Notes under the pieces: model-generated
What the model saw: the letters and a program-made list of their open reading frames with translations, nothing else
What the model was told of the DNA's origin: nothing
The model's database searches: none
From: Bacteroidia bacterium
GTDB taxonomy: Bacteria; Bacteroidota; Bacteroidia; B-17B0; Aurantibacillaceae
Direction of reading: 5' to 3'
Length of the DNA: 64,000 nt
Assembly: GCA_044229775.1 (NCBI GenBank)
Contig: JBGASH010000001.1
Span: 10,409 to 74,408, forward strand
In this document: positions 3,504 through 62,449 of the stretch, piece after piece
Numbering within the stretch: position 1 is the first letter of the stretch
How the letters are laid out: each line of letters begins with the position of its first letter
Position numbers and translations under genes: made by a program

Positions 3504-4154
3504 TTATTCGAAATAATAAATTTTTATCTGAGCCGAATCCCTTAAAAAATCAATTTTTTGAATAGAGATCCGATGAACGTTTATGCCAGTTCTTTTTTTG
3601 ATGTCCTCGATCAATTCAGGATGGCGGTCTTCGCTTATCAGTTCAATGTTCTCGTAATTGATCAATTTCACCACTTCCTTTTTAATGAGCAATTTACTCT
3701 CCAATAAGAAGGCCAGCAACACAATAACGCCGTTGATCAAAGCCAGAAACACCACCTCGTAATTTTCGCTGGCGTCTTTTACTTTTGTTACCGCCGATAT
3801 GAGGCCGATGGCAATGACCAAAAACAAATAGGTCATGTCTTTAATGCTAATATCCTCGGTGCGGTATCTAAGCATACTGAATACAGCAAATAAACCAAAA
3901 GCGGCGCCCATGCTTAACTCCACTTTATTTAAGAGGAAACAAATAAAGAAAATGATAATGTTAAAGATGAAGAATGTAAAAAACAACTCGCGCTTTTTAT
4001 AGGCAGGGAAGTACACCAGGCGAATCAGCGCGAATACGGCTGCAAAATCTATAAGAAGGCGAAGGCCTATTTTGCCCGATATTTTTTGTATGGCCTCAAA
4101 GCCATTGCTTACAACCGACTCATCGGCTGCCTGCAAGAGAAACGCGTGTATCAT
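3504..4154 (-). CDS. DUF4956-like integral membrane protein
   Basis: Several TM helices. The FGLFAVFSMLRYRTE block is typical of the family that partners bacterial VTC-domain proteins. Confidence 0.6.
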   Translation of the reverse strand: MIHAFLLQAADESVVSNGFEAIQKISGKIGLRLLIDFAAVFALIRLVYFPAYKKRELFFTFFIFNIIIFFICFLLNKVELSMGAAFGLFAVFSMLRYRTEDISIKDMTYLFLVIAIGLISAVTKVKDASENYEVVFLALINGVIVLLAFLLESKLLIKKEVVKLINYENIELISEDRHPELIEDIKKRTGINVHRISIQKIDFLRDSAQIKIYYFE

Positions 4155-7514: not shown

Positions 7515-8207
7515 TTGTTGAAACGTATAAAATATTTCTATTGCCTATTGATGATCGTGCTTTTTACAAATGCGAAAGCGCAGAAAGCAGAACAAGATTT
7601 CCAATTATGGGCCAATGCCGAAATAGAATCGCCTATCAATAAAAGATGGATGATCCATTTGCAGCATCAGTCAAGGATAACCGAAAACGCTTCGGCCTAT
7701 AGCTATTATTATTTCGATGGCGGATTCTTATACCGTATCGGGAGAAACCTGCGATTTAATTTTAATTACATTTTTGTTGATAAGGGACGAATGGATCACG
7801 CCGCCAGCTATCGCGATCAGTTTGAAGGGTATTTTACCTATAGAAAAAAAGTGGGAAAATTTGTTTTCTTTGATCGCTTTCTTGGCGATATGCAGTTTAA
7901 AGACTACAATGCCGATCCGCAAGGCAATCATCTGAGGGATTTTTATGTTAGAAATAAATTTACCATTAGGTATAAATTACCTCATAAGTTTACGCCGTAC
8001 GTGGCACAGGAAACCTATTATAAATTTGACGGGATGTACTATGAAAAAGGATTTAACAGAATAAGATTATTTGGCGGACTGCTATACAACCTAACGGATA
8101 ATTGGCTTGCGGAGGTTTGTTACATTTTGGAGATGAACCACGACGCAAAAATTCCTACCAACAATTACATCATTAGTTTTGGCGTTGTAAGAACCTTTTT
8201 TCAATAA
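7515..8207 (+). CDS. DUF2490-like outer-membrane protein (paralog of 2821-3501)
   Basis: Signal peptide, QLWANAE...RWM..LQHQSR pattern, beta-barrel-like alternation. Confidence 0.55.
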   Translation: MLKRIKYFYCLLMIVLFTNAKAQKAEQDFQLWANAEIESPINKRWMIHLQHQSRITENASAYSYYYFDGGFLYRIGRNLRFNFNYIFVDKGRMDHAASYRDQFEGYFTYRKKVGKFVFFDRFLGDMQFKDYNADPQGNHLRDFYVRNKFTIRYKLPHKFTPYVAQETYYKFDGMYYEKGFNRIRLFGGLLYNLTDNWLAEVCYILEMNHDAKIPTNNYIISFGVVRTFFQ

Positions 8208-14068: not shown

Positions 14069-17000
14069 ATGGAATACAACTTTAGAAAAATAGAAGAAAA
14101 GTGGCAAGCTATCTGGAAGGATAAAAAATCTTTCAAAACAGATAATAATTCAAGCAAACCGAAATATTATGTACTCGACATGTTTCCATATCCTTCGGGT
14201 GCCGGATTGCATGTGGGTCACCCATTAGGTTATATTGCCTCCGATATTATAGCGCGGTATAAACGCCATAAAGGATTTAATGTATTACACCCTATGGGGT
14301 ACGATAGTTTTGGATTACCGGCCGAACAGTATGCTATACAAACAGGACAACATCCTAAAATTACAACCGAACAAAACATTGCCCGTTACCGCGAGCAATT
14401 AGATAAAATTGGATTTTCGTTTGATTGGGATAGAGAAGTAAGAACATCTGACCCGTCGTATTACAAATGGACACAATGGATCTTTATACAATTATTTAAT
14501 TCGTGGTACGATCTTAAAAGCAATAAGGCCGAGAAGATAGAGACCCTAATTGCCGAATTTGAAAAAAGTGGCAATGGTAATATAAACGCACATTGTGAAG
14601 AAGGTACAAAAACATTTTCGGCAGAAGAGTGGAAAAACTATTCTGAAAAAGAAAGATCAGACGCCTTGATGCAATACCGCATTGCTTATTTGGGAGAAGC
14701 GTATGTGAATTGGTGTCCTGCTATGGGAACCGTATTAGCCAATGACGAAGTAAAGGATGGCGTAAGCGAACGCGGTGGTTATCCGGTTGAACGGAAATTA
14801 ATGAAGCAATGGAGCATGCGTATAACGGCCTACGCACAGCGGCTTTTGGATGGTTTGGATAAGATTGACTGGACCGAAAGTTTGAAGGAATCGCAACGCT
14901 ATTGGATAGGAAAAAGCGAGGGAACGAGTTTGAAGTTTAGGGTCCAGGACCTATCCCCGGCCCTTTCCAAAGGAAAGGGAGAAGAGGCAGCCGAAGGCAT
15001 TGACCCGGGTTATTTTACCACCGACGAGTTTACCTATAGGTTGTTACATGATAGAGCAGTGGAAATGAGAAAAAATCCAACCCCGGCAGAATCTGCGTTG
15101 TGGAAATCTTTAAAAGGAAATAAACTGGATGTTCATTTCAGGCAGCAACAAATAATAGGAAAATACATTGTAGATTTTGTTTGTTTGTCAAAAAAACTTG
15201 TGGTTGAGGTGGATGGAGATATACATGATCATCAAAAAGAAGAGGACGAACAAAGAACACGGGAATTGACACTTACGGGTTACAAAGTGATTCGATTCAA
15301 AAACGAAAAGGTATTAAATGAAATTGATGGTGTCCTGAGAGAAATTAGTTCCGAATTAGAAACGCAAAGTAAAGTCCTCCCCAAAGGGGAGGATTTAGGA
15401 GGGGTCATAGAGGTTTTCACAACACGACCCGATACCATCTTTGGCGTATCATTTGTTACTCTTGCTCCGGAGCATGAGTTAGTTGATAAAATTACAACGC
15501 CCGAACAAAAAGCGGCGGTGGATGATTACGTTAACAAATCAAAGAGCAGAAGTGAGCGTGAGCGACAAGCCGACGTGAATAAAGTGAGCGGCGTTTTTAC
15601 AGGTGCTTATGTAGAACACCCTTTTACAAAAAAACAAATTCCTATTTGGGTGGGCGATTATGTGTTGGCAGGTTATGGAACCGGAGCTGTTATGGCCGTA
15701 CCGGCGCACGATGAACGAGATTTTAAATTTGCCACGCATTTTGGTTTAGCAAAACCACAAGTGATTGTTCCGCCAACAGAACATGATCTTGAAAAGGCGT
15801 CGTGGGATGAAAAAGAAGGAAAGTTAATTAACTCCGATTTTTTAAACGGTCTCGAGGTAAAAGCAGCCATAAAAAAAGCCATTGAAGAAATTGAAAAGAA
15901 TAATTTAGGAAAAGGAAAAATAAATTACCGCCTGCGCGACGCGGTTTTTGGCCGTCAGCGTTATTGGGGAGAACCGATCCCTATCTTTTATAAAGATGGA
16001 ATTCCACATGCATTACCCGAAAGCGAATTACCATTGGTGTTACCCGAAGTAGATAAGTATTTACCAACCGAAGACGGCGAACCGCCTTTGGCCCGCGCTA
16101 CCAACTGGAAGTACACCCCTCTCCTTGGGAGAGGGGACGGGGGTGAGGCTTCTTACCCCTACGAATTAACCACCATGCCCGGTTGGGCTGGGAGCTCTTG
16201 GTATTTTTTGCGCTATATGGATGTGCATAACGACAAAACTTTTGCCGATAAAAAATTAATGGACTACTGGAAAAATGTAGACCTATACATTGGTGGCAGC
16301 GAACATGCTACCGGACATTTATTATATGTGCGTTTCTGGACCAAGTTTTTGCACGACTTAAATTATATTTCTATTGACGAACCTGCGCAGAAACTGATCA
16401 ATCAAGGGATGATACAGGGGCTGAGCGAGAAAATAATTAGATTAACGGCAAGGAATCCTAAAATAATTGATGGACATGAAAATTTGGATGAGGCTCTAGC
16501 AAATATTGAAAATAAAAGTGTTTCAATTCCTGAGGGAATTTCAAATGTGTTTATTAGTGCTGACGTAGTAGAAAGTCATAGAAGCCCTTTCTTGTCAACG
16601 GACAAACACGCAAGAGTTGATGATGTTGAGAATGGGGTATTGAATATTAGAAAGCATTTAAAATTTTGGAAAGAAGATAGTGACGCGGCTTTTGTTTGTT
16701 TAGGAGGGTATTGGAGAAATGGAGAATTCCATGGGAATGGCTCAGATCAATTCAAGACAATACAAGAAGTAGAAAAAATGTCTAAATCGAAACACAACGT
16801 TGTTTCACCTGACAATAAATTCGACGAATCTACTGGAGAAATTGTTCCCGGCATAATTGAAAAATTCGGCGCGGATACTTTGCGTTTGTACGAAATGTTT
16901 TTGGGTCCCCTTGAGCAAAGTAAACCCTGGAACACTAATGGTATTACCGGCGTTTCGGGTTTTTTGAAAAAATTGTGGAGACTGTTCTATATGTCCCCCG

Positions 17001-17518
17001 CTGGCGGGGGTGGCGAGACGGGGGTGGACATTACCGTAAGCTCAGCCGAACCGACCAAGCCCGAACTAAAAGCGCTACACAAAACCATTAAAAAAATTAC
17101 CGAAGACATAGAGCGTTTTTCGTTCAACACCTCGGTAAGTAATTTTATGATCTGTGTAAATGAATTAACCGACCTTAAATGTAATAAGAGAGCTATACTT
17201 GAACCGTTATTAATTATTTTATCGCCTTACGCGCCGCACATTACCGAAGAACTGTGGGAGAAACTAGGCCATAAAGAAAGCATAGCTTATGCTGAGTTTC
17301 CTATTTGTAACGAGAGTTATTTGGTAGAGAGTAATTTTAATTATCCTATTTCGTTCAATGGTAAAACCCGTTTCAATATCGAAATGCCCGCAACGTTAAG
17401 CATTCCCGAAATTGAGAAACTGGTAATGGAAGCCGAACAAACACATAAGTATTTAGAAGGTAAGCAACCTAAAAAGGTGATCGTGGTTCCTAAAAAAATT
17501 GTGAATATTGTAGTTTGA
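14069..17518 (+). CDS. leuS: Leucyl-tRNA synthetase carrying several in-frame insertions
   Basis: HIGH motif ([10 protein letters not shown]), editing-domain motif (TTRPDTIFG), KMSKS motif, [11 protein letters not shown]. At 1149 aa it is much longer than typical bacterial LeuRS. Confidence 0.95.
14951..15403 (+). mobile_element. DUF559/Vsr-like nuclease cassette translated in-frame within leuS
   Basis: About 151 extra codons lie between the [13 protein letters not shown] and TTRPDTIFG blocks. The core is homologous to ORF 62012-62449 (KYIVDF.C, V.E.DGDIH, I.RFKNE.VL). It is bounded by hairpins at 14961-14979 and 15376-15392. Boundaries are approximate. Confidence 0.65.
14961..14988 (+). repeat. 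GC-rich hairpin plus purine tail (left boundary of the leuS cassette)
   Basis: ccctttcc-aaa-ggaaaggg followed by agaagaggc. Confidence 0.6.
15376..15404 (+). repeat. GC-rich hairpin plus tail (right boundary of the leuS cassette)
   Basis: cctcccc-aaa-ggggagg followed by atttaggagggg. Confidence 0.6.
16116..16149 (+). repeat. Solo hairpin-tail element translated in-frame in leuS
   Basis: cccctctcc-ttg-ggagagggg followed by acgggggtgaggc. Encodes [12 protein letters not shown]. Nearly identical to the intergenic copy at 38197-38228 (opposite strand). Confidence 0.75.
16995..17028 (+). repeat. Solo hairpin-tail element translated in-frame in leuS
   Basis: cccccgc-tg-gcggggg followed by tggcgagacgggggtgga. 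Encodes [11 protein letters not shown]. Shares the acgggggtg tail with 16137-16145. Confidence 0.6.
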
Positions 17519-36408: not shown

Positions 36409-36448
36409 CGTTAAGTCAAAAGTTTTTAAGTCAAAATTCAAAAGAGGG

Positions 36449-36802
36449 CTACTCCTTTTTTAAATTGACTATTATTTTTGCTAATACTTTTTCAATTTGT
36501 TCTAATTCCTTTATTATTTCCTGTTCCTTTTTGGAACTATAATCATATCCTTTTTTAATAACTGCCATCCAATAACCTGTTTCGTTTGCCGATCTAAGGG
36601 CAATATCGTAAAACCGGGTCAGTTCTTTTCTTGAACTACTTGCTTTTGCTTCTCGCACATTCGCTCCAATTGATGTTCCGCTTCTTCTGACTTGCGATAT
36701 TACATCAAAATCAACATTATTCTTTTTTAATTCTATCGAAAACTTTACCATCAATACGGCAAAATCCAGCGTCCAATCCTTTATATCTTTATCATACCCC
36801 AT
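36449..36802 (-). CDS. Four-helix-bundle protein (23S rRNA intervening-sequence protein / Avd family)
   Basis: 117 aa. SIGANVREAKASSSRKE...FYDIALRSANETGYW is the hallmark pattern of this family. It sits co-oriented between nuoF and nuoG. Confidence 0.8.
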   Translation of the reverse strand: MGYDKDIKDWTLDFAVLMVKFSIELKKNNVDFDVISQVRRSGTSIGANVREAKASSSRKELTRFYDIALRSANETGYWMAVIKKGYDYSSKKEQEIIKELEQIEKVLAKIIVNLKKE

Positions 36803-36853
36803 TTGAAAGAACGTTCAACCTTTTGACTTTTGAATTAACTTCTCTTGACTTTA

Positions 36854-38196: not shown

Positions 38197-38228
38197 GCCT
38201 CACCCCCCGCCCTCTCCTTTGGAGAGGG
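38197..38228 (-). repeat. Solo hairpin-tail element in the nuoE-nuoF spacer
   Basis: The minus strand reads ccctctcc-aaa-ggagaggg followed by cggggggtgaggct. Same family as 16116-16149. Confidence 0.75.
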
Positions 38229-59975: not shown

Positions 59976-59996
59976 ATTGCTACAAATCGTAGCAAT
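59976..59996 (+). terminator. Hairpin downstream of the CHAT gene (weak terminator candidate)
   Basis: attgctac-aaatc-gtagcaat 8-bp stem. No clear T-run follows. Confidence 0.3.
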
Positions 59997-60015
59997 CAAT
60001 CCTTTGATCTTACCA

Positions 60016-60023
60016 TAACTTTG
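60016..60023 (+). promoter_or_regulatory. Candidate -7 promoter box TAACTTTG
   Basis: Matches TAnnTTTG. It lies 27 nt before the left inverted repeat of the GxxExxY cassette and about 530 nt before the radA start. Confidence 0.4.
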
Positions 60024-60049
60024 TATTATAAATAAGGAAACAATACAAT

Positions 60050-60524
60050 AACCGCAGAGACGCGAAGTTTAACGCAAAGTGACGCAGAGAAAGGAAAAAA
60101 ATGGAGGAGAATGAGATTTCGGGAAAAATTATAGGATGTGCTATTAAAGTTCATAATTTTCTGGGACCAGGATTATTGGAATCGGCATATTTGGAGTGTT
60201 TGCATTATGAACTGATTCAAGTAGGGTTAAGAGCTGAAAAGGAAAAACCACTACCGCTCATTTACGAAGAGGTTAAACTAAATGTTGGATATAGAATTGA
60301 TCTTTTAGTAGAGGGTAAAGTAATTGTAGAAGCAAAGGCGGTTGAGGCATTAAATGATGTGCATTTGGCTCAGGTATTGACGTATTTGCGATTAACCGAA
60401 ACCAAATTAGGCCTGCTTATCAATTTTAATGTTTCAAGGATAAAAAACGGACTAAGGCGGGTCGTCAATAATATTTGAATTTACCTCTGCGGGACTCAGC
60501 GAATAACTCTGCGTCTTTGCGGTT
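60050..60524 (+). mobile_element. GxxExxY-gene cassette bounded by 41-nt imperfect terminal inverted repeats
   Basis: Left repeat, 60050-60090: aaccgcagagacgcgaagtttaacgcaaagtgacgcagaga. Reverse complement of the right repeat, 60484-60524: aaccgcaaagacgcagagttattcgctgagtcccgcagagg. About 30 of 41 positions match by hand alignment. Confidence 0.6.
60101..60478 (+). CDS. GxxExxY-family protein (PD-(D/E)XK nuclease-like fold)
   Basis: GPGLLESAYLECL (GxxExxY), RIDLLVEGKVIVEAKAV (D...E.K), LAQVLTYLR, LLINFN motifs. Confidence 0.8.
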   Translation: MEENEISGKIIGCAIKVHNFLGPGLLESAYLECLHYELIQVGLRAEKEKPLPLIYEEVKLNVGYRIDLLVEGKVIVEAKAVEALNDVHLAQVLTYLRLTETKLGLLINFNVSRIKNGLRRVVNNI

Positions 60525-60551
60525 AAATAGATAAACATAATTAGAAAGCAA

Positions 60552-61931
60552 GTGGCTAAAACTAAAACAACCTTTTTCTGCCAAAGCTGCGGTACACAAT
60601 CGCCCAAATGGGTGGGTCGTTGTACCAGTTGCAACGAGTGGAATACCTATGTAGAAGAAGTTATTTCAAAAGAAACAAAGAACGACCGGTTACAAAATTT
60701 TAGTAGTACCGCACAACGCGCCCCAAAGCCGGTTTTGATAAACGATATTGGCATGGCCGATTATCCGCGACACAAAATTGAGGATTCGGAATTGTCAAGA
60801 GTTTTAGGTGGTGGTATCGTTCCCGGGAGCTTGGTGTTATTTGGCGGCGAGCCCGGCATAGGCAAATCCACTCTCATGCTGCAATTAGCGCTAACCTTAA
60901 AAAACCTAAAGGTATTATATGTAAGTGGCGAAGAAAGTGAACAGCAAATTCGCATGCGTGCGGATAGGCTGGACCTTAAAAGTGACGATTGTTTTATTTT
61001 ACAGGAAACCAATACTCAAAACATTTTTAAACAGATCGAGTTGTTGAATCCTGAGTTTGTTATTATAGATTCCATTCAAACATTACACACCTCTTACATT
61101 GAAAGTTCTCCCGGTTCGGTATCGCAGGTTCGCGAATGCGCTTCGGAATTGATGCGTTTTGCGAAAGAAAGTAGTATTCCGGTTTTTATGATAGGCCATA
61201 TTACAAAAGACGGAAGTTTGGCTGGACCAAAAGTTTTAGAACACATGGTAGATACGGTTTTGCAATTTGAAGGCGACCGTAATCATGTTTACCGTTTACT
61301 AAGAACCACTAAAAATAGGTTTGGAAGCACCAACGAATTAGGCATATACGAAATGCAAGGGGCGGGGTTACGACAGGTAAGCAACCCATCAGAAATATTA
61401 ATTACGAACCGGGAAACGCCTACCAGTGGGGTAGCTATATCGGCTACGTTAGAGGGTAACCGCCCTATTTTAATTGAAACACAGGCGTTAGTAAGTAGTG
61501 CAGCTTATGGTGTGCCACAGCGGTCATCAACGGGATTCGATCTGCGGAGGTTATCGATGCTATTAGCGGTTTTAGAAAAACGCTGTGGGTTTCGACTGGC
61601 CGTAAAGGACGTATTCATTAACATAGCCGGTGGAATAAAAGTAGAGGATCCGGGAATTGACATGGCCCTGGTATGTGGAATTTTATCAAGTAATGAAGAT
61701 CTTCCAATACCACAAAATGTTTGTTTTGCTGGTGAGGTAGGATTGACGGGCGAGATCCGTCCGGTTAACCGAATTGAGCAACGCATCTCTGAAGCTCAAA
61801 AATTGGGTTTCGAAAAAATATTCATTTCTTCTTACAATAAAAAGGGCCTCGATCTGAAGCAATTCAGCATCGAGATCGTTACCGTTAGTAAAATGGAAGA
61901 GGTATTTCAGAAGTTGTTCGGGGGGAGTTGA
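60552..61931 (+). CDS. radA: DNA repair protein RadA
   Basis: N-terminal zinc finger CQSCG...CTSCNEWN, Walker A GGEPGIGKST, KNRFG motif, Lon-protease-like C-terminus. GTG start. Confidence 0.95.
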   Translation: MAKTKTTFFCQSCGTQSPKWVGRCTSCNEWNTYVEEVISKETKNDRLQNFSSTAQRAPKPVLINDIGMADYPRHKIEDSELSRVLGGGIVPGSLVLFGGEPGIGKSTLMLQLALTLKNLKVLYVSGEESEQQIRMRADRLDLKSDDCFILQETNTQNIFKQIELLNPEFVIIDSIQTLHTSYIESSPGSVSQVRECASELMRFAKESSIPVFMIGHITKDGSLAGPKVLEHMVDTVLQFEGDRNHVYRLLRTTKNRFGSTNELGIYEMQGAGLRQVSNPSEILITNRETPTSGVAISATLEGNRPILIETQALVSSAAYGVPQRSSTGFDLRRLSMLLAVLEKRCGFRLAVKDVFINIAGGIKVEDPGIDMALVCGILSSNEDLPIPQNVCFAGEVGLTGEIRPVNRIEQRISEAQKLGFEKIFISSYNKKGLDLKQFSIEIVTVSKMEEVFQKLFGGS

Positions 61932-61967
61932 CGCAGGGAAGTTTAATCATAGATGACGCTCTCTATT

Positions 61968-62443
61968 CCCTCTCCCTTGGGAGAGGGTAGGGTGAGGGTT
62001 AGAATTCAATAATGAAAACGAAAAGCTTACATCACTACAGTGCTCCCAAAAGCGCCTTTGAAAACGCTAAAATCCTTAGAAAAAATCAAACTAAAGCGGA
62101 ATGGTTATTTTGGCGGATAGTTTCAGGAAGAAAAATTCTGGGATTTAAATTCCGAAGACAACATCCAATTAGTAAGTATATTGTCGATTTTTATTGTCAG
62201 GAGGTTTTATTAGTGATAGAATTGGATGGGGATATTCACTATATTGAAAGCGTTAAAAGGTATGATAAAAAAAGAGAGGATGATTTGAAAAAACTTGGAC
62301 TAGAGATCATTAGGTTCAAAAATGAGGAGGTGCTTTTTGATACCGATAGAACAATTGAAAAATTAAAAGGAATTTTGAATACCTCGATGAAAGAGGAACC
62401 CTCATCCTCGATCCTTCTCCCATCGGGAGAAGGATGTGATCAC
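61968..62443 (+). mobile_element. Free-standing DUF559 cassette bounded by inverted hairpin-tail repeats
   Basis: Left end is ccctctcc-cttg-ggagaggg plus tagggtgaggg (61968-61998). Right end is ccctcatcc-tcgat plus ccttctccc-atc-gggagaagg (62409-62443), the same module in inverted orientation. Confidence 0.65.
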
Positions 62444-62449
62444 TGTTGA
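62012..62449 (+). CDS. DUF559 / Vsr-like endonuclease-domain protein
   Basis: RKNQTKAEWLFW, KYIVDFYC, VIELDGDIH, IIRFKNEEVL. The last ~15 codons (EEPSSSILLPSGEGCDHC) are encoded by the right terminal repeat. Confidence 0.8.
   Translation: MKTKSLHHYSAPKSAFENAKILRKNQTKAEWLFWRIVSGRKILGFKFRRQHPISKYIVDFYCQEVLLVIELDGDIHYIESVKRYDKKREDDLKKLGLEIIRFKNEEVLFDTDRTIEKLKGILNTSMKEEPSSSILLPSGEGCDHC

Follow-up and report, generated by a model that had tools for sequence, protein, structure and literature searches.

In the repetitive extragenic palindrome systems (REP / RAYT, or REPIN), one gene lies between short hairpin repeats and the same hairpins are scattered solo; the gene product, RAYT, is an HUH tyrosine transposase and the REPs are extragenic. 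Rickettsia palindromic elements (RPEs), which Ogata et al. reportedly described in 2000, are said to be inserted in frame in protein genes, and Mazel et al. are said to have described, in 1990, the STRR heptamer tandem repeats of heterocystous cyanobacteria. We know of no description of STRR arrays as paired arms around a gene. The 23S rRNA intervening sequences (IVSs) that bear an open reading frame (ORF), known from Leptospira, Coxiella, Brucella and Xanthomonas, have complementary borders and an ORF of the S23p family, are transcribed with the rRNA that hosts them and are excised from the transcript by RNase III without religation (PMC4990558). Vsr-like homing endonucleases of the EDxHD type are established (I-Bth0305I; 'fractured genes'; PMC3239194, PMC2677866), and DUF559 has been linked to this family (PMC9403480, PMC3424549). 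Palindromic repeats in frame in protein genes have been reviewed (PMC10969869), and the term STRR is mentioned in PMC2858038. Here we describe four small units in a stretch of 64,000 nucleotides from a Bacteroidia bacterium (contig JBGASH010000001.1, positions 10,409 to 74,408; hereafter the window, numbered from its first letter): a GxxExxY gene, a stand-alone DUF559 gene, a four-helix-bundle (4HB) gene of the 23S rRNA IVS protein family, and a DUF559 domain inside the leucyl-tRNA synthetase LeuS.

The three protein families are already catalogued, and rRNA IVSs and Vsr-like homing nucleases are published. We propose that the four units are probably small selfish cassettes that carry no transposase and need a host gene for their expression. 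They are of two architectures, not one: kind A comprises GxxExxY and 4HB, and kind B is DUF559. The first-pass annotation of this DNA had ascribed one lifestyle to all of them, which did not hold, since DUF559 has two self-complementary hairpins, also found solo, and an in-frame life inside proteins, unlike the other families.

Identity of the four units

The closest RadA among species-representative genomes was 81% identical to that of the window, and all best matches were metagenome-assembled genomes of Bacteroidota/Bacteroidia. An exact match to the RadA protein of the window was found in only one contig, 2.6 kb long and from the same strain. Searches with Pfam and NCBIfam returned exactly four units, and tblastn with the four unit sequences found no further copies in the window, confirming the number first annotated (Table 1). 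All four lie on the strand of their host unit with repeats on both sides, and no transposase gene adjoins any of them in the window; the earlier description of repeat-bounded, transposase-less, co-oriented inserts next to or inside housekeeping genes is thereby supported. Each unit is a single ORF, and a partner (antitoxin or immunity) gene is absent. That each is also a single small gene is correct for GxxExxY, the stand-alone DUF559 and 4HB and fails for the leuS unit, an in-frame domain without a start or stop of its own. As annotated, radA is bracketed by two nuclease-fold cassettes, GxxExxY on its 5' side and DUF559 on its 3' side. The four units in 64 kb compare with three in total in 679 kb of relatives' radA loci.

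The GxxExxY ORF scored 146 bits against TIGR04256 (cut-off 35) and 139 bits against PF13366 (cut-off 22), the stand-alone and LeuS copies of DUF559 scored 110 and 118 bits against PF04480 (cut-off 20.6), and the 4HB ORF scored 79 bits against TIGR02436 (cut-off 24) and 69 bits against PF05635 (cut-off 33.8). The 4HB protein matched PDB entry 2RLD (E 2e-16), and DUF559 matched 3HRL, an 'endonuclease-like protein' (E 3.5e-15). Two of the three families, GxxExxY and DUF559, are indeed nuclease folds with intact catalytic motifs. GxxExxY is conserved at about 70% identity across phyla, and residues G24, E27 and Y30 of the GxxExxY motif and D67, E77 and K79 of the D..ExK triad are invariant in 28 homologues.

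No intron or other RNA family was found for the units in Rfam, and no PHROG match was found for GxxExxY or 4HB. Single-protein scans of viral contigs gave nothing for GxxExxY or 4HB and one locus for DUF559 (L082; loci and proteins of our samples are given by handles of this form). An integron gene cassette, which has a single attC site 3' of its ORF and is arrayed beside an integrase and attI, was considered and rejected, as there is an arm on each side, the units are solitary in housekeeping operons and the window has no integrase ORF. A generic detector of short periodic repeats found 13 arrays in the window against 7.6 in shuffles and was too noisy in A+T-rich DNA to identify further arms.

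Table 1. Coordinates of the units, their repeats and the radA features in the window
Feature	Position	Strand	Basis or remark
GxxExxY / PDDEXK_3 nuclease-fold ORF, 125 aa	60101..60478	+	TIGR04256, E 9e-41
GxxExxY left arm: TAACC and heptamers CGCAGAG, CGCGAAG, CGCAAAG, CGCAGAG	60049..60089	+	inverted repeat
GxxExxY right arm (CTCTGCG ... CTTTGCGGTTA)	60485..60525	+	inverted repeat; ends 26 nt before radA start
4HB (23S rRNA IVS protein family) ORF between nuoF and nuoG	36449..36802	-	23S_rRNA_IVP / TIGR02436, E 4e-19
4HB upstream arm (AAGTCAAGAG ... AAGTCAAAAG, read on the - strand)	36820..36851	-	inverted repeat
4HB downstream arm	36413..36444	-	overlaps first codons of the mechanically called nuoG ORF
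Stand-alone DUF559 (Vsr-like) ORF, 145 aa	62012..62449	+	Pfam, E 5e-32
Left end module of stand-alone DUF559: hairpin CCCTCTCCCttGGGAGAGGG (61968-61987) and GGGTGAGGG tail	61968..61999	.	hairpin search
Right hairpin of stand-alone DUF559: TCCTTCTCCCatcGGGAGAAGGA	62412..62434	.	hairpin search
DUF559 element in frame in leuS (LeuS residues about 294-445)	14948..15403	+	hairpins 14961-14979 and 15375-15393
Solo hairpin module (CCCCTCTCCttgGGAGAGGGG and GGGGTGAGGC) in frame in leuS, at the second DUF559 site	16116..16148	.	hairpin 16116-16136; 11-residue peptide
Solo hairpin module in the nuoE-nuoF spacer	38197..38228	.	hairpin 38210-38228; ends 2 nt before likely nuoF ATG
radA (host gene)	60552..61931	+	TIGR00416, E 4e-182
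Bacteroidota-type -7 promoter box of radA, TAACTTTG, upstream of the cassette	60016..60023	+	sole TAnnTTTG from the upstream gene to the radA start

GxxExxY and 4HB genes are enclosed by complementary arms

In the window the GxxExxY arms are 41 nt long, 76% complementary and made of ACGCAGAG-like sub-repeats, and they pair together in both the minimum free energy (MFE) and the centroid RNA fold of the whole unit (z = -4.25). To place this copy among its homologues, 80 metagenomic GxxExxY loci were fetched, of which 76 units with 100-nt flanks were scored. Almost every unit among the 80 loci has a heptamer array upstream and its reverse complement downstream. The inverted-repeat score of a unit's own flanks had a median of 28, against 16 when flanks were paired across units and 14 in shuffles (Mann-Whitney p = 1e-15, n = 76). 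The heptamers were searched with the degenerate pattern CRCNRRK (consensus CRCARAG); a comparison of the top 6-mers, dominated by A/T-rich words, was dropped in its favour. At least two forward heptamers upstream together with at least two reverse heptamers downstream were found in 41 of the 76 units, the background being 7.9% per flank per strand. In 25 of these 41 the same heptamer variant stood in both arms, where 5.9 were expected (p < 1e-4); the variants include CGCAAAG, CACAGAG, CACAAAG, CGCAGAG, CACAGAT and others. Each arm holds 3-4 heptamers at a spacing of 9-12 nt, with the outermost copy embedded in TTAACC.

The window 4HB cassette has the same design, with arms of 32 nt that are 81% complementary, contain AGTCAAAAG-like sub-repeats and pair together in the MFE and centroid folds of the whole unit (z = -2.70). 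The alignment of 4HB proteins was too divergent to seed a scan of the collection, so the 4HB flanks were taken from previously collected loci and from plasmids. Complementary arms were present in most of the cassettes checked (the window, L015, L160, L162, L175, L179 and L180). Their repeat units are TAGACAAG in L015 and L009, GAACAAGG in L160, GAAAAGTGAA in L162, (AATTCAA)4 in Nostoc, (TAATTCG)4 in Dolichospermum and GATTAGT in Bernardetia. They are unrelated from copy to copy, while the layout is that of the GxxExxY arms; the 4HB arms conserve complementarity and periodicity and not sequence. Three plasmid copies, from Nostoc sp. TCL26-01 (L176), Treponema (L177) and Anabaena (L178), scored no better than shuffles, the Treponema copy having CTCTCCG arrays on both sides.

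The radA leader and the nuoF|nuoG junction are shared by different families

The region of the radA -7 box is a block conserved with locus L006, where the counterpart box reads TACCTTTG. L006 is an empty site: the same upstream gene is followed by radA 120 nt later with no cassette, and the radA ATG lies within about 10 nt of the box. In the window the GxxExxY cassette is thus inserted between the -7 box and the start of radA. TAnnTTTG does not recur between this box and radA and is likewise missing ahead of the DUF559 and 4HB ORFs, and by this motif GxxExxY, the stand-alone DUF559 and 4HB are without a -7 box of their own. Since no further -7 box precedes radA, the sequence implies that radA is transcribed through the GxxExxY cassette. 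L006 is the only empty GxxExxY site, and its alignment with the window is too diverged to define a target-site duplication.

Upstream of the radA -7 box both loci also conserve a palindrome, GCTACAAATCGTAGC (59988-60002 in the window, about 318-332 in L006), followed by a AATCAATC block; the palindrome may be an operator or the terminator of the upstream gene. The contig of L006 (CAYYUS010000084.1) is labelled 'uncultured Akkermansia sp.', yet its RadA is 78% identical to that of the window and the locus is syntenic; mislabelling or contamination of the bin is probable.

In 80 radA loci taken from relatives, DUF559 never adjoins radA, and GxxExxY occurs nearby in a single locus (L029), downstream of radA. 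In L015 and L009 a 4HB cassette stands directly before radA, its arm ending 8 nt before the ATG, and in L038 a solo hairpin of the DUF559 type lies 14 nt before radA. Conversely, the position held by 4HB in the window is held by GxxExxY in L105, between nuoF (65% identical to that of the window) and nuoG (70%), and L093, L150 and L109 carry GxxExxY in the gene sets of related complexes, with a NuoF-like gene on one side and a NuoG-like gene on the other; junctions of the nuoF|nuoG type were thus occupied by GxxExxY in 4 of 80 loci. 4HB and GxxExxY are interchangeable occupants of the radA-leader and nuoF|nuoG junctions. This sharing of junctions by different families is the strongest support for a shared niche, and it is clean only for 4HB and GxxExxY.

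Judged by eye from translations, one and the same helix-hairpin-helix (ComEA-like) family lies downstream of GxxExxY in 4 of the 41 loci with a callable downstream ORF (L091, L099, L134, L144), and cyclase-like (L095, L108) and methyltransferase-like genes (L133, L146) recur twice each; the cassettes may favour these junctions too, or the insertions may have been inherited. In L179, a Bernardetia plasmid, a 4HB gene with GATTAGT-repeat arms (1486-1842) precedes recF by 49 nt on the same strand; recF, like radA, is thus a recombination/repair gene whose leader holds a cassette. In L165 an arm pair of the GxxExxY type without an ORF (TTAACCGCAAAG ... 45 nt ... CTTCGCGGTTAA, about 3865-3990) lies directly upstream of a GxxExxY ORF, which has a further reverse arm downstream; this suggests either empty derivatives resembling MITEs (transposable elements of the miniature inverted-repeat type) or duplicated arms. 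Splitting of the aldehyde dehydrogenase gene by GxxExxY in L165 was rejected, since the upstream ORF is a full-length 489-aa enzyme and the insertion is therefore intergenic.

DUF559 is bounded by stop-free hairpins

DUF559 has one short hairpin per side, whose left arm is made up of pyrimidines only and whose right arm is made up of purines only. Such hairpins flank every DUF559 DNA examined (both window copies, L082, both sites of L164, and L165). The window has six G+C-rich pyrimidine/purine hairpins, four flanking DUF559 and two solo, where block shuffles of the window gave 0.24 of this stem type; the detector used for the shuffles had no G+C filter and also counted a seventh, poly-T/poly-A, hairpin in the window. 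Other Bacteroidota loci (about 1.2 Mb) have 0.65 such hairpins per 64 kb. Measured against these backgrounds, and those for the heptamer arms around GxxExxY, the repeats are specifically tied to the genes, as the first-pass annotation had required.

A run of pyrimidines or of purines cannot contain a stop codon in any frame on either strand. The DUF559 arms translate to Ser/Pro/Leu/Phe and then Gly/Glu/Arg/Lys, peptides that look like flexible linkers; in the stand-alone gene the C-terminus reads through the right hairpin (LLPSGEG). Arms without possible stops and linker-like peptides would let in-frame life in the surface loops of essential proteins be tolerated.

The solo modules consist of a pyrimidine/purine hairpin and a GGGGTGAGGC-like tail without any DUF559, and look like footprints or precursors of the DUF559 element. 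A degenerate module of this type, also in frame in leuS (16994-17025), encodes SPAGGGGE. The mechanical start of the nuoF ORF, GTG 38203 (- strand), falls inside a solo module, and ATG 38194 (MGKKLL...) is more likely to be the start. Short-read assemblies stop, or contain runs of N, right at DUF559: after radA in L081, which ends at 2605, and at leuS site 2 in L168 (about 7720-7818). This is consistent with repeated or polymorphic DNA, and implies that metagenomes under-assemble such elements.

DUF559 occupies few sites in LeuS and is gained and lost there

LeuS of the window has 1149 aa (14069-17518), with the DUF559 domain at residues 327-430. The insert carries neither a start nor a stop codon and is read as one protein with LeuS. 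It falls between the residues corresponding to 237 and 243 of Thermus thermophilus LeuRS, at the entry to the CP1 editing domain, and in L163 the same site is empty. An intein was rejected as an explanation, as LeuS lacks a Hint/intein domain and the insert borders show no HN|C/S/T junction, and a self-splicing intron was rejected since Rfam gave no intron family.

Among 120 LeuS homologues, DUF559 is present at the site used in the window (site 1) in 64 and at another site (site 2, near residue 693 of the window LeuS) in 22, while 2 have it at both and 36 at neither. Empty site 1 reads ...KF(L/R)..|..VFTTRPDT. Site 2 is found in three states: empty (...WKYKGQ|YDYE...), full, or with a solo hairpin (...SPLLGRGAGGEA...), the last being the state of the window. 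Of 87 inserts, 86 retain the nuclease motif E.DG..H and 85 have the hairpin peptide at both ends, defined loosely as at least two of S/P/L/F/T and then at least three of G/E/R/K/D within five residues. On a neighbour-joining LeuS tree of 872 core columns, full versus not-full requires at least 23 changes at site 1 and at least 8 at site 2, against 40 and 20 with shuffled tips. This means that occupancy carries a vertical signal, yet there have been many gains and losses, and occupancy is discordant in pairs of LeuS proteins 92-95% identical in the core. Furthermore, the insert of the window is 42% identical to that of a sister protein (P0143) whose host parts are 73% identical, and it is 46-50% identical to site 2 inserts, so that the sister's insert is as distant as these.

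The clearest comparison comes from contigs that share an identical GxxExxY protein and show 98% identity over 7.7 kb: LeuS site 2 is occupied by DUF559 in L165-L167 and not in L170 and L171. Between identical flanks, 36 nt of L170 give way in L165 to the element with 18 nt of different codons before it and 12 nt after it, about 6-10 flanking codons being replaced, which is the pattern expected for recombination with co-conversion. Presence and absence among relatives, put forward in the first-pass annotation as a test of mobility, is therefore seen in the empty L006, in the swapping of occupants at junctions and in these strains.

LeuS is one host among many. An exhaustive profile-free search with the LeuS insert matched 22,734 cluster representatives at E up to 1e-3; among the best 150 of these, the domain was internal to a longer protein in 40 and at one end of a longer ORF in 38. 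In each of the ten hosts that were checked, DUF559 interrupts an ordinary enzyme: RecJ, SpoIIE phosphatase, Tgt, an RsmI-like methylase, TatD, GT2, an epimerase, DegT, MetH and MnmE. In P0016, which has a synthetase editing domain of the TTRPET type (PF13603; ValS-like by eye), the insert lies just before the TTRPET motif, as in LeuS. The best match of the search, P0261 (377 aa), has three DUF559-matching stretches in one protein, which suggests tandem or nested elements.

How the units may be expressed and spread

For kind A, an ORF without a -7 box would lie between inverted arms of 30-45 nt, each of 3-4 short repeats and mutually complementary in every copy, within 5' leaders or intercistronic spacers, and would be transcribed as part of the host unit. 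In the read-through transcript the arms would pair as a long duplex, to be cut by RNase III or merely to loop the cassette out, and processing of the duplex would release or insulate the cassette message and limit damage to the host operon. Such an RNA duplex, processed or looped out in the manner of the rRNA IVSs, is put forward tentatively. At the DNA level, since GxxExxY conserves its PD-(D/E)XK triad, a copy step that is triggered by the nuclease and depends on recombination is plausible, and copying of this sort is our leading guess for how kind A spreads.

For kind B, a Vsr-like nuclease domain of the EDxHD type, with a hairpin on each side, would lodge in frame in surface loops or between genes. 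The nuclease would cut the empty allele, and repair from the filled allele would copy the element together with a few flanking codons. We incline, with modest confidence, to homing-type gene conversion as the means by which DUF559 spreads, given the recurrent site-specific occupancy, the replaced flanks of L165/L170, the conserved motif and the established homing by EDxHD endonucleases. The hairpins may in addition be targets of the nuclease or recombination sites.

A number of observations weigh against this proposal. Starting with the arms, the consensus CRCARAG and the outer TTAACC are kept across GxxExxY hosts, which looks more like recognition by a protein than mere pairing, and the consensus with its ~10-nt spacing would equally fit arrays of protein-binding sites on DNA. 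Swapped or duplicated arms occur (7 RF, 3 RR and 2 FF among the 76 units, F and R standing for forward and reverse heptamers, the upstream arm given first), and 18 of 76 have a qualifying arm on one side only. When G.U-compatible mismatches were compared with A.C mismatches, those compatible with G.U pairing numbered 60 in the sense and 57 in the antisense reading (19 and 14 for isolated ones), most mismatches being transversions in the spacers between heptamers; this lack of strand asymmetry gives no support to an RNA-level stem and favours neither pairing of RNA nor pairing of DNA. A conserved end is also what would be seen if the arms were the terminal inverted repeats of non-autonomous MITE-like transposons, with the transposase elsewhere in the genome and the ORFs as passengers. 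The outer TTAACCRC and the heptamer consensus recur at unrelated host loci, tandem and duplicated arms occur, an ORF-less arm pair precedes the GxxExxY ORF of L165, and DUF559-type hairpins exist solo. We nevertheless regard this explanation as unlikely: the 4HB repeat units are unrelated between copies while complementarity is kept, so that recognition by one transposase is out of the question, the diverged L006 site defined no target-site duplication, none of the units in the window adjoins a transposase gene, the strong conservation of the GxxExxY ORF across phyla is unlike that of a passenger, and the replaced codons of L165/L170 fit recombination and not cut-and-paste.

In the 80 loci GxxExxY is co-oriented with the gene upstream in 53 of 62 cases (85%) and with the gene downstream in 44 of 59 (75%), both far from random, whereas other adjacent gene pairs of the same loci are co-oriented in 185 of 258 (72%); between two co-oriented neighbours, the cassette shares their strand in 35 of 41 cases (85%) and an ordinary gene in 102 of 121 (84%). 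Random orientation of GxxExxY is thus refuted, as the first-pass annotation would have it, but the bias is no stronger than that of ordinary genes. Since it is the bias of any operon gene, it does not prove dependence on host transcription. The same observation would follow if the units were ordinary accessory genes, inherited vertically (for example repair or RNA-binding genes co-regulated with radA, nuo and leuS), with the palindromes as regulatory or processing signals. The proteins are under purifying selection, LeuS occupancy has the phylogenetic signal described above, and the GxxExxY copy next to an aldehyde dehydrogenase gene keeps its place in strains and species that share 92-98% identity. 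Such inheritance is difficult to reconcile with the empty syntenic radA site of L006, with the rarity of DUF559 and GxxExxY at the radA loci of relatives and the density of units in the window compared with these loci, with different families at the same junction in different genomes, or with a DUF559 domain that recurs in frame in many unrelated proteins, differs so widely between sister LeuS proteins and is present or absent between strains. We consider it improbable.

Co-orientation is not universal either. It holds in the window, but on two Nostocales plasmids, of Nostoc and Anabaena, the 4HB gene lies antisense between cas2 and cas1 (L176, 1498-1854; L178, 1495-1842), and on plasmids it also adjoins a DNA methyltransferase/helicase gene set. 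These neighbours, together with the two nuclease folds and their intact motifs, are what might be expected of defence or addiction modules, whose nucleases would attack invading DNA, or cells from which the cassette had been lost, and so ensure retention near essential genes. No unit has a significant PADLOC match; the weak ones, to Cas4, DpdF and a methyl-directed restriction enzyme, are marginal (E 2.8e-4, in round terms 3e-4, to 1e-2) and reflect a shared fold only. On these matches and the lack of partner genes an anti-phage defence system was rejected. No antitoxin or immunity partner accompanies any unit, 4HB has no nuclease fold, and the in-frame insertions and paired arms would be left unexplained. 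No evidence was found for a defensive role or for the addictive one that had been suggested for these genes, and we hold either to be very doubtful.

The selfish-cassette proposal has itself to accommodate 4HB, which, as a non-nuclease, needs a helper or a different route for its spread. For DUF559, the small number of recurrent LeuS sites could reflect tolerance, that is, selection for permissive loops, rather than target specificity. Finally, the mobility of all cassettes is inferred from comparisons between genomes; no cleavage, excision or transposition event was observed.

Implications

Taken jointly, DUF559 homing inside essential proteins (LeuS, ValS, RecJ, Tgt, MnmE, MetH and others) and stem-bounded cassettes in mRNA operons would amount to a widespread and largely undescribed form of expression parasitism without a transposase, a combination that we judge to fall a little short of probable. 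In the open-access literature and bioRxiv, whose coverage is incomplete, we found no description of mRNA operons that carry the IVS layout with another cargo family and shared junctions, of periodic co-varying heptamer arms, or of intron- and intein-free DUF559 translated inside many essential proteins through hairpin linkers; database curators may be aware of some of these points.

If the proposal is right, two minimal designs of mobile DNA would be added that lack a transposase or self-splicing carrier and borrow host transcription and, for DUF559, translation too. Repeated hits at the same junctions would imply a site- or structure-directed insertion mechanism for the stem-bounded cassettes, and the role of heptamer (STRR-type) repeat arrays may be explained; more generally, a testable role is offered for short periodic repeat arrays. 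The proposal also offers a starting point on function for three large 'unknown' families (GxxExxY has more than 8000 members among the matches listed), and would account for odd 'fusion' proteins, over-long aminoacyl-tRNA synthetases among them, in the annotation of Bacteroidota. The LeuS-type inserts indicate natural permissive insertion sites in essential enzymes, and the linker-encoding pyrimidine/purine hairpin, with its stop-free arms, is a design that could be adopted for inserting domains elsewhere.

Comparison with described systems

Kind A most resembles the ORF-bearing 23S rRNA IVSs. The 4HB protein belongs to the same family (S23p = 23S_rRNA_IVP = four helix bundle) and is encoded by a single small ORF, and complementary borders that form a stem around the element are present in both the GxxExxY and 4HB cassettes of the window. 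The IVSs sit in the rRNA gene (helix 9, 25 or 45), whereas the host here is an mRNA operon (nuoF|nuoG or the radA leader) and the window has no rRNA. Furthermore, the arms of kind A are short periodic repeats, and a second cargo, GxxExxY, has the same layout and uses the same junctions. The perfect tandem heptamers of the Nostoc and Dolichospermum 4HB arms, (AATTCAA)4 and (TAATTCG)4 with their complements opposite, are like STRR repeats. Compared with transposons and MITEs bounded by terminal inverted repeats, GxxExxY has conserved TTAACC ends and heptamers, and the 4HB arms are unrelated in sequence.

Kind B shares features with three systems. As in RPEs, short palindromic DNA stands in frame in essential proteins, in the form of the leuS solo modules; RPEs are gene-less and 100-150 bp long, whereas the palindromes here are about 20-35 nt and flank a nuclease domain. 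As in REP / RAYT, a single gene has flanking hairpins and the hairpins also occur solo, but DUF559 is a Vsr-like nuclease and its hairpins are found inside ORFs as well. With the EDxHD homing endonucleases DUF559 shares the Vsr-like fold and the E..D..H(D) motif, site-specific and patchy occurrence in conserved genes, and flanks replaced along with the element. The known members of that group are housed in a group I intron or a (split) intein, or else stand free, as does the DUF559 copy linked to radA. The DUF559 of LeuS differs from them in having neither intron nor intein, in being translated as an insertion through hairpin-encoded linkers, and in the presence of solo hairpins at the same sites.

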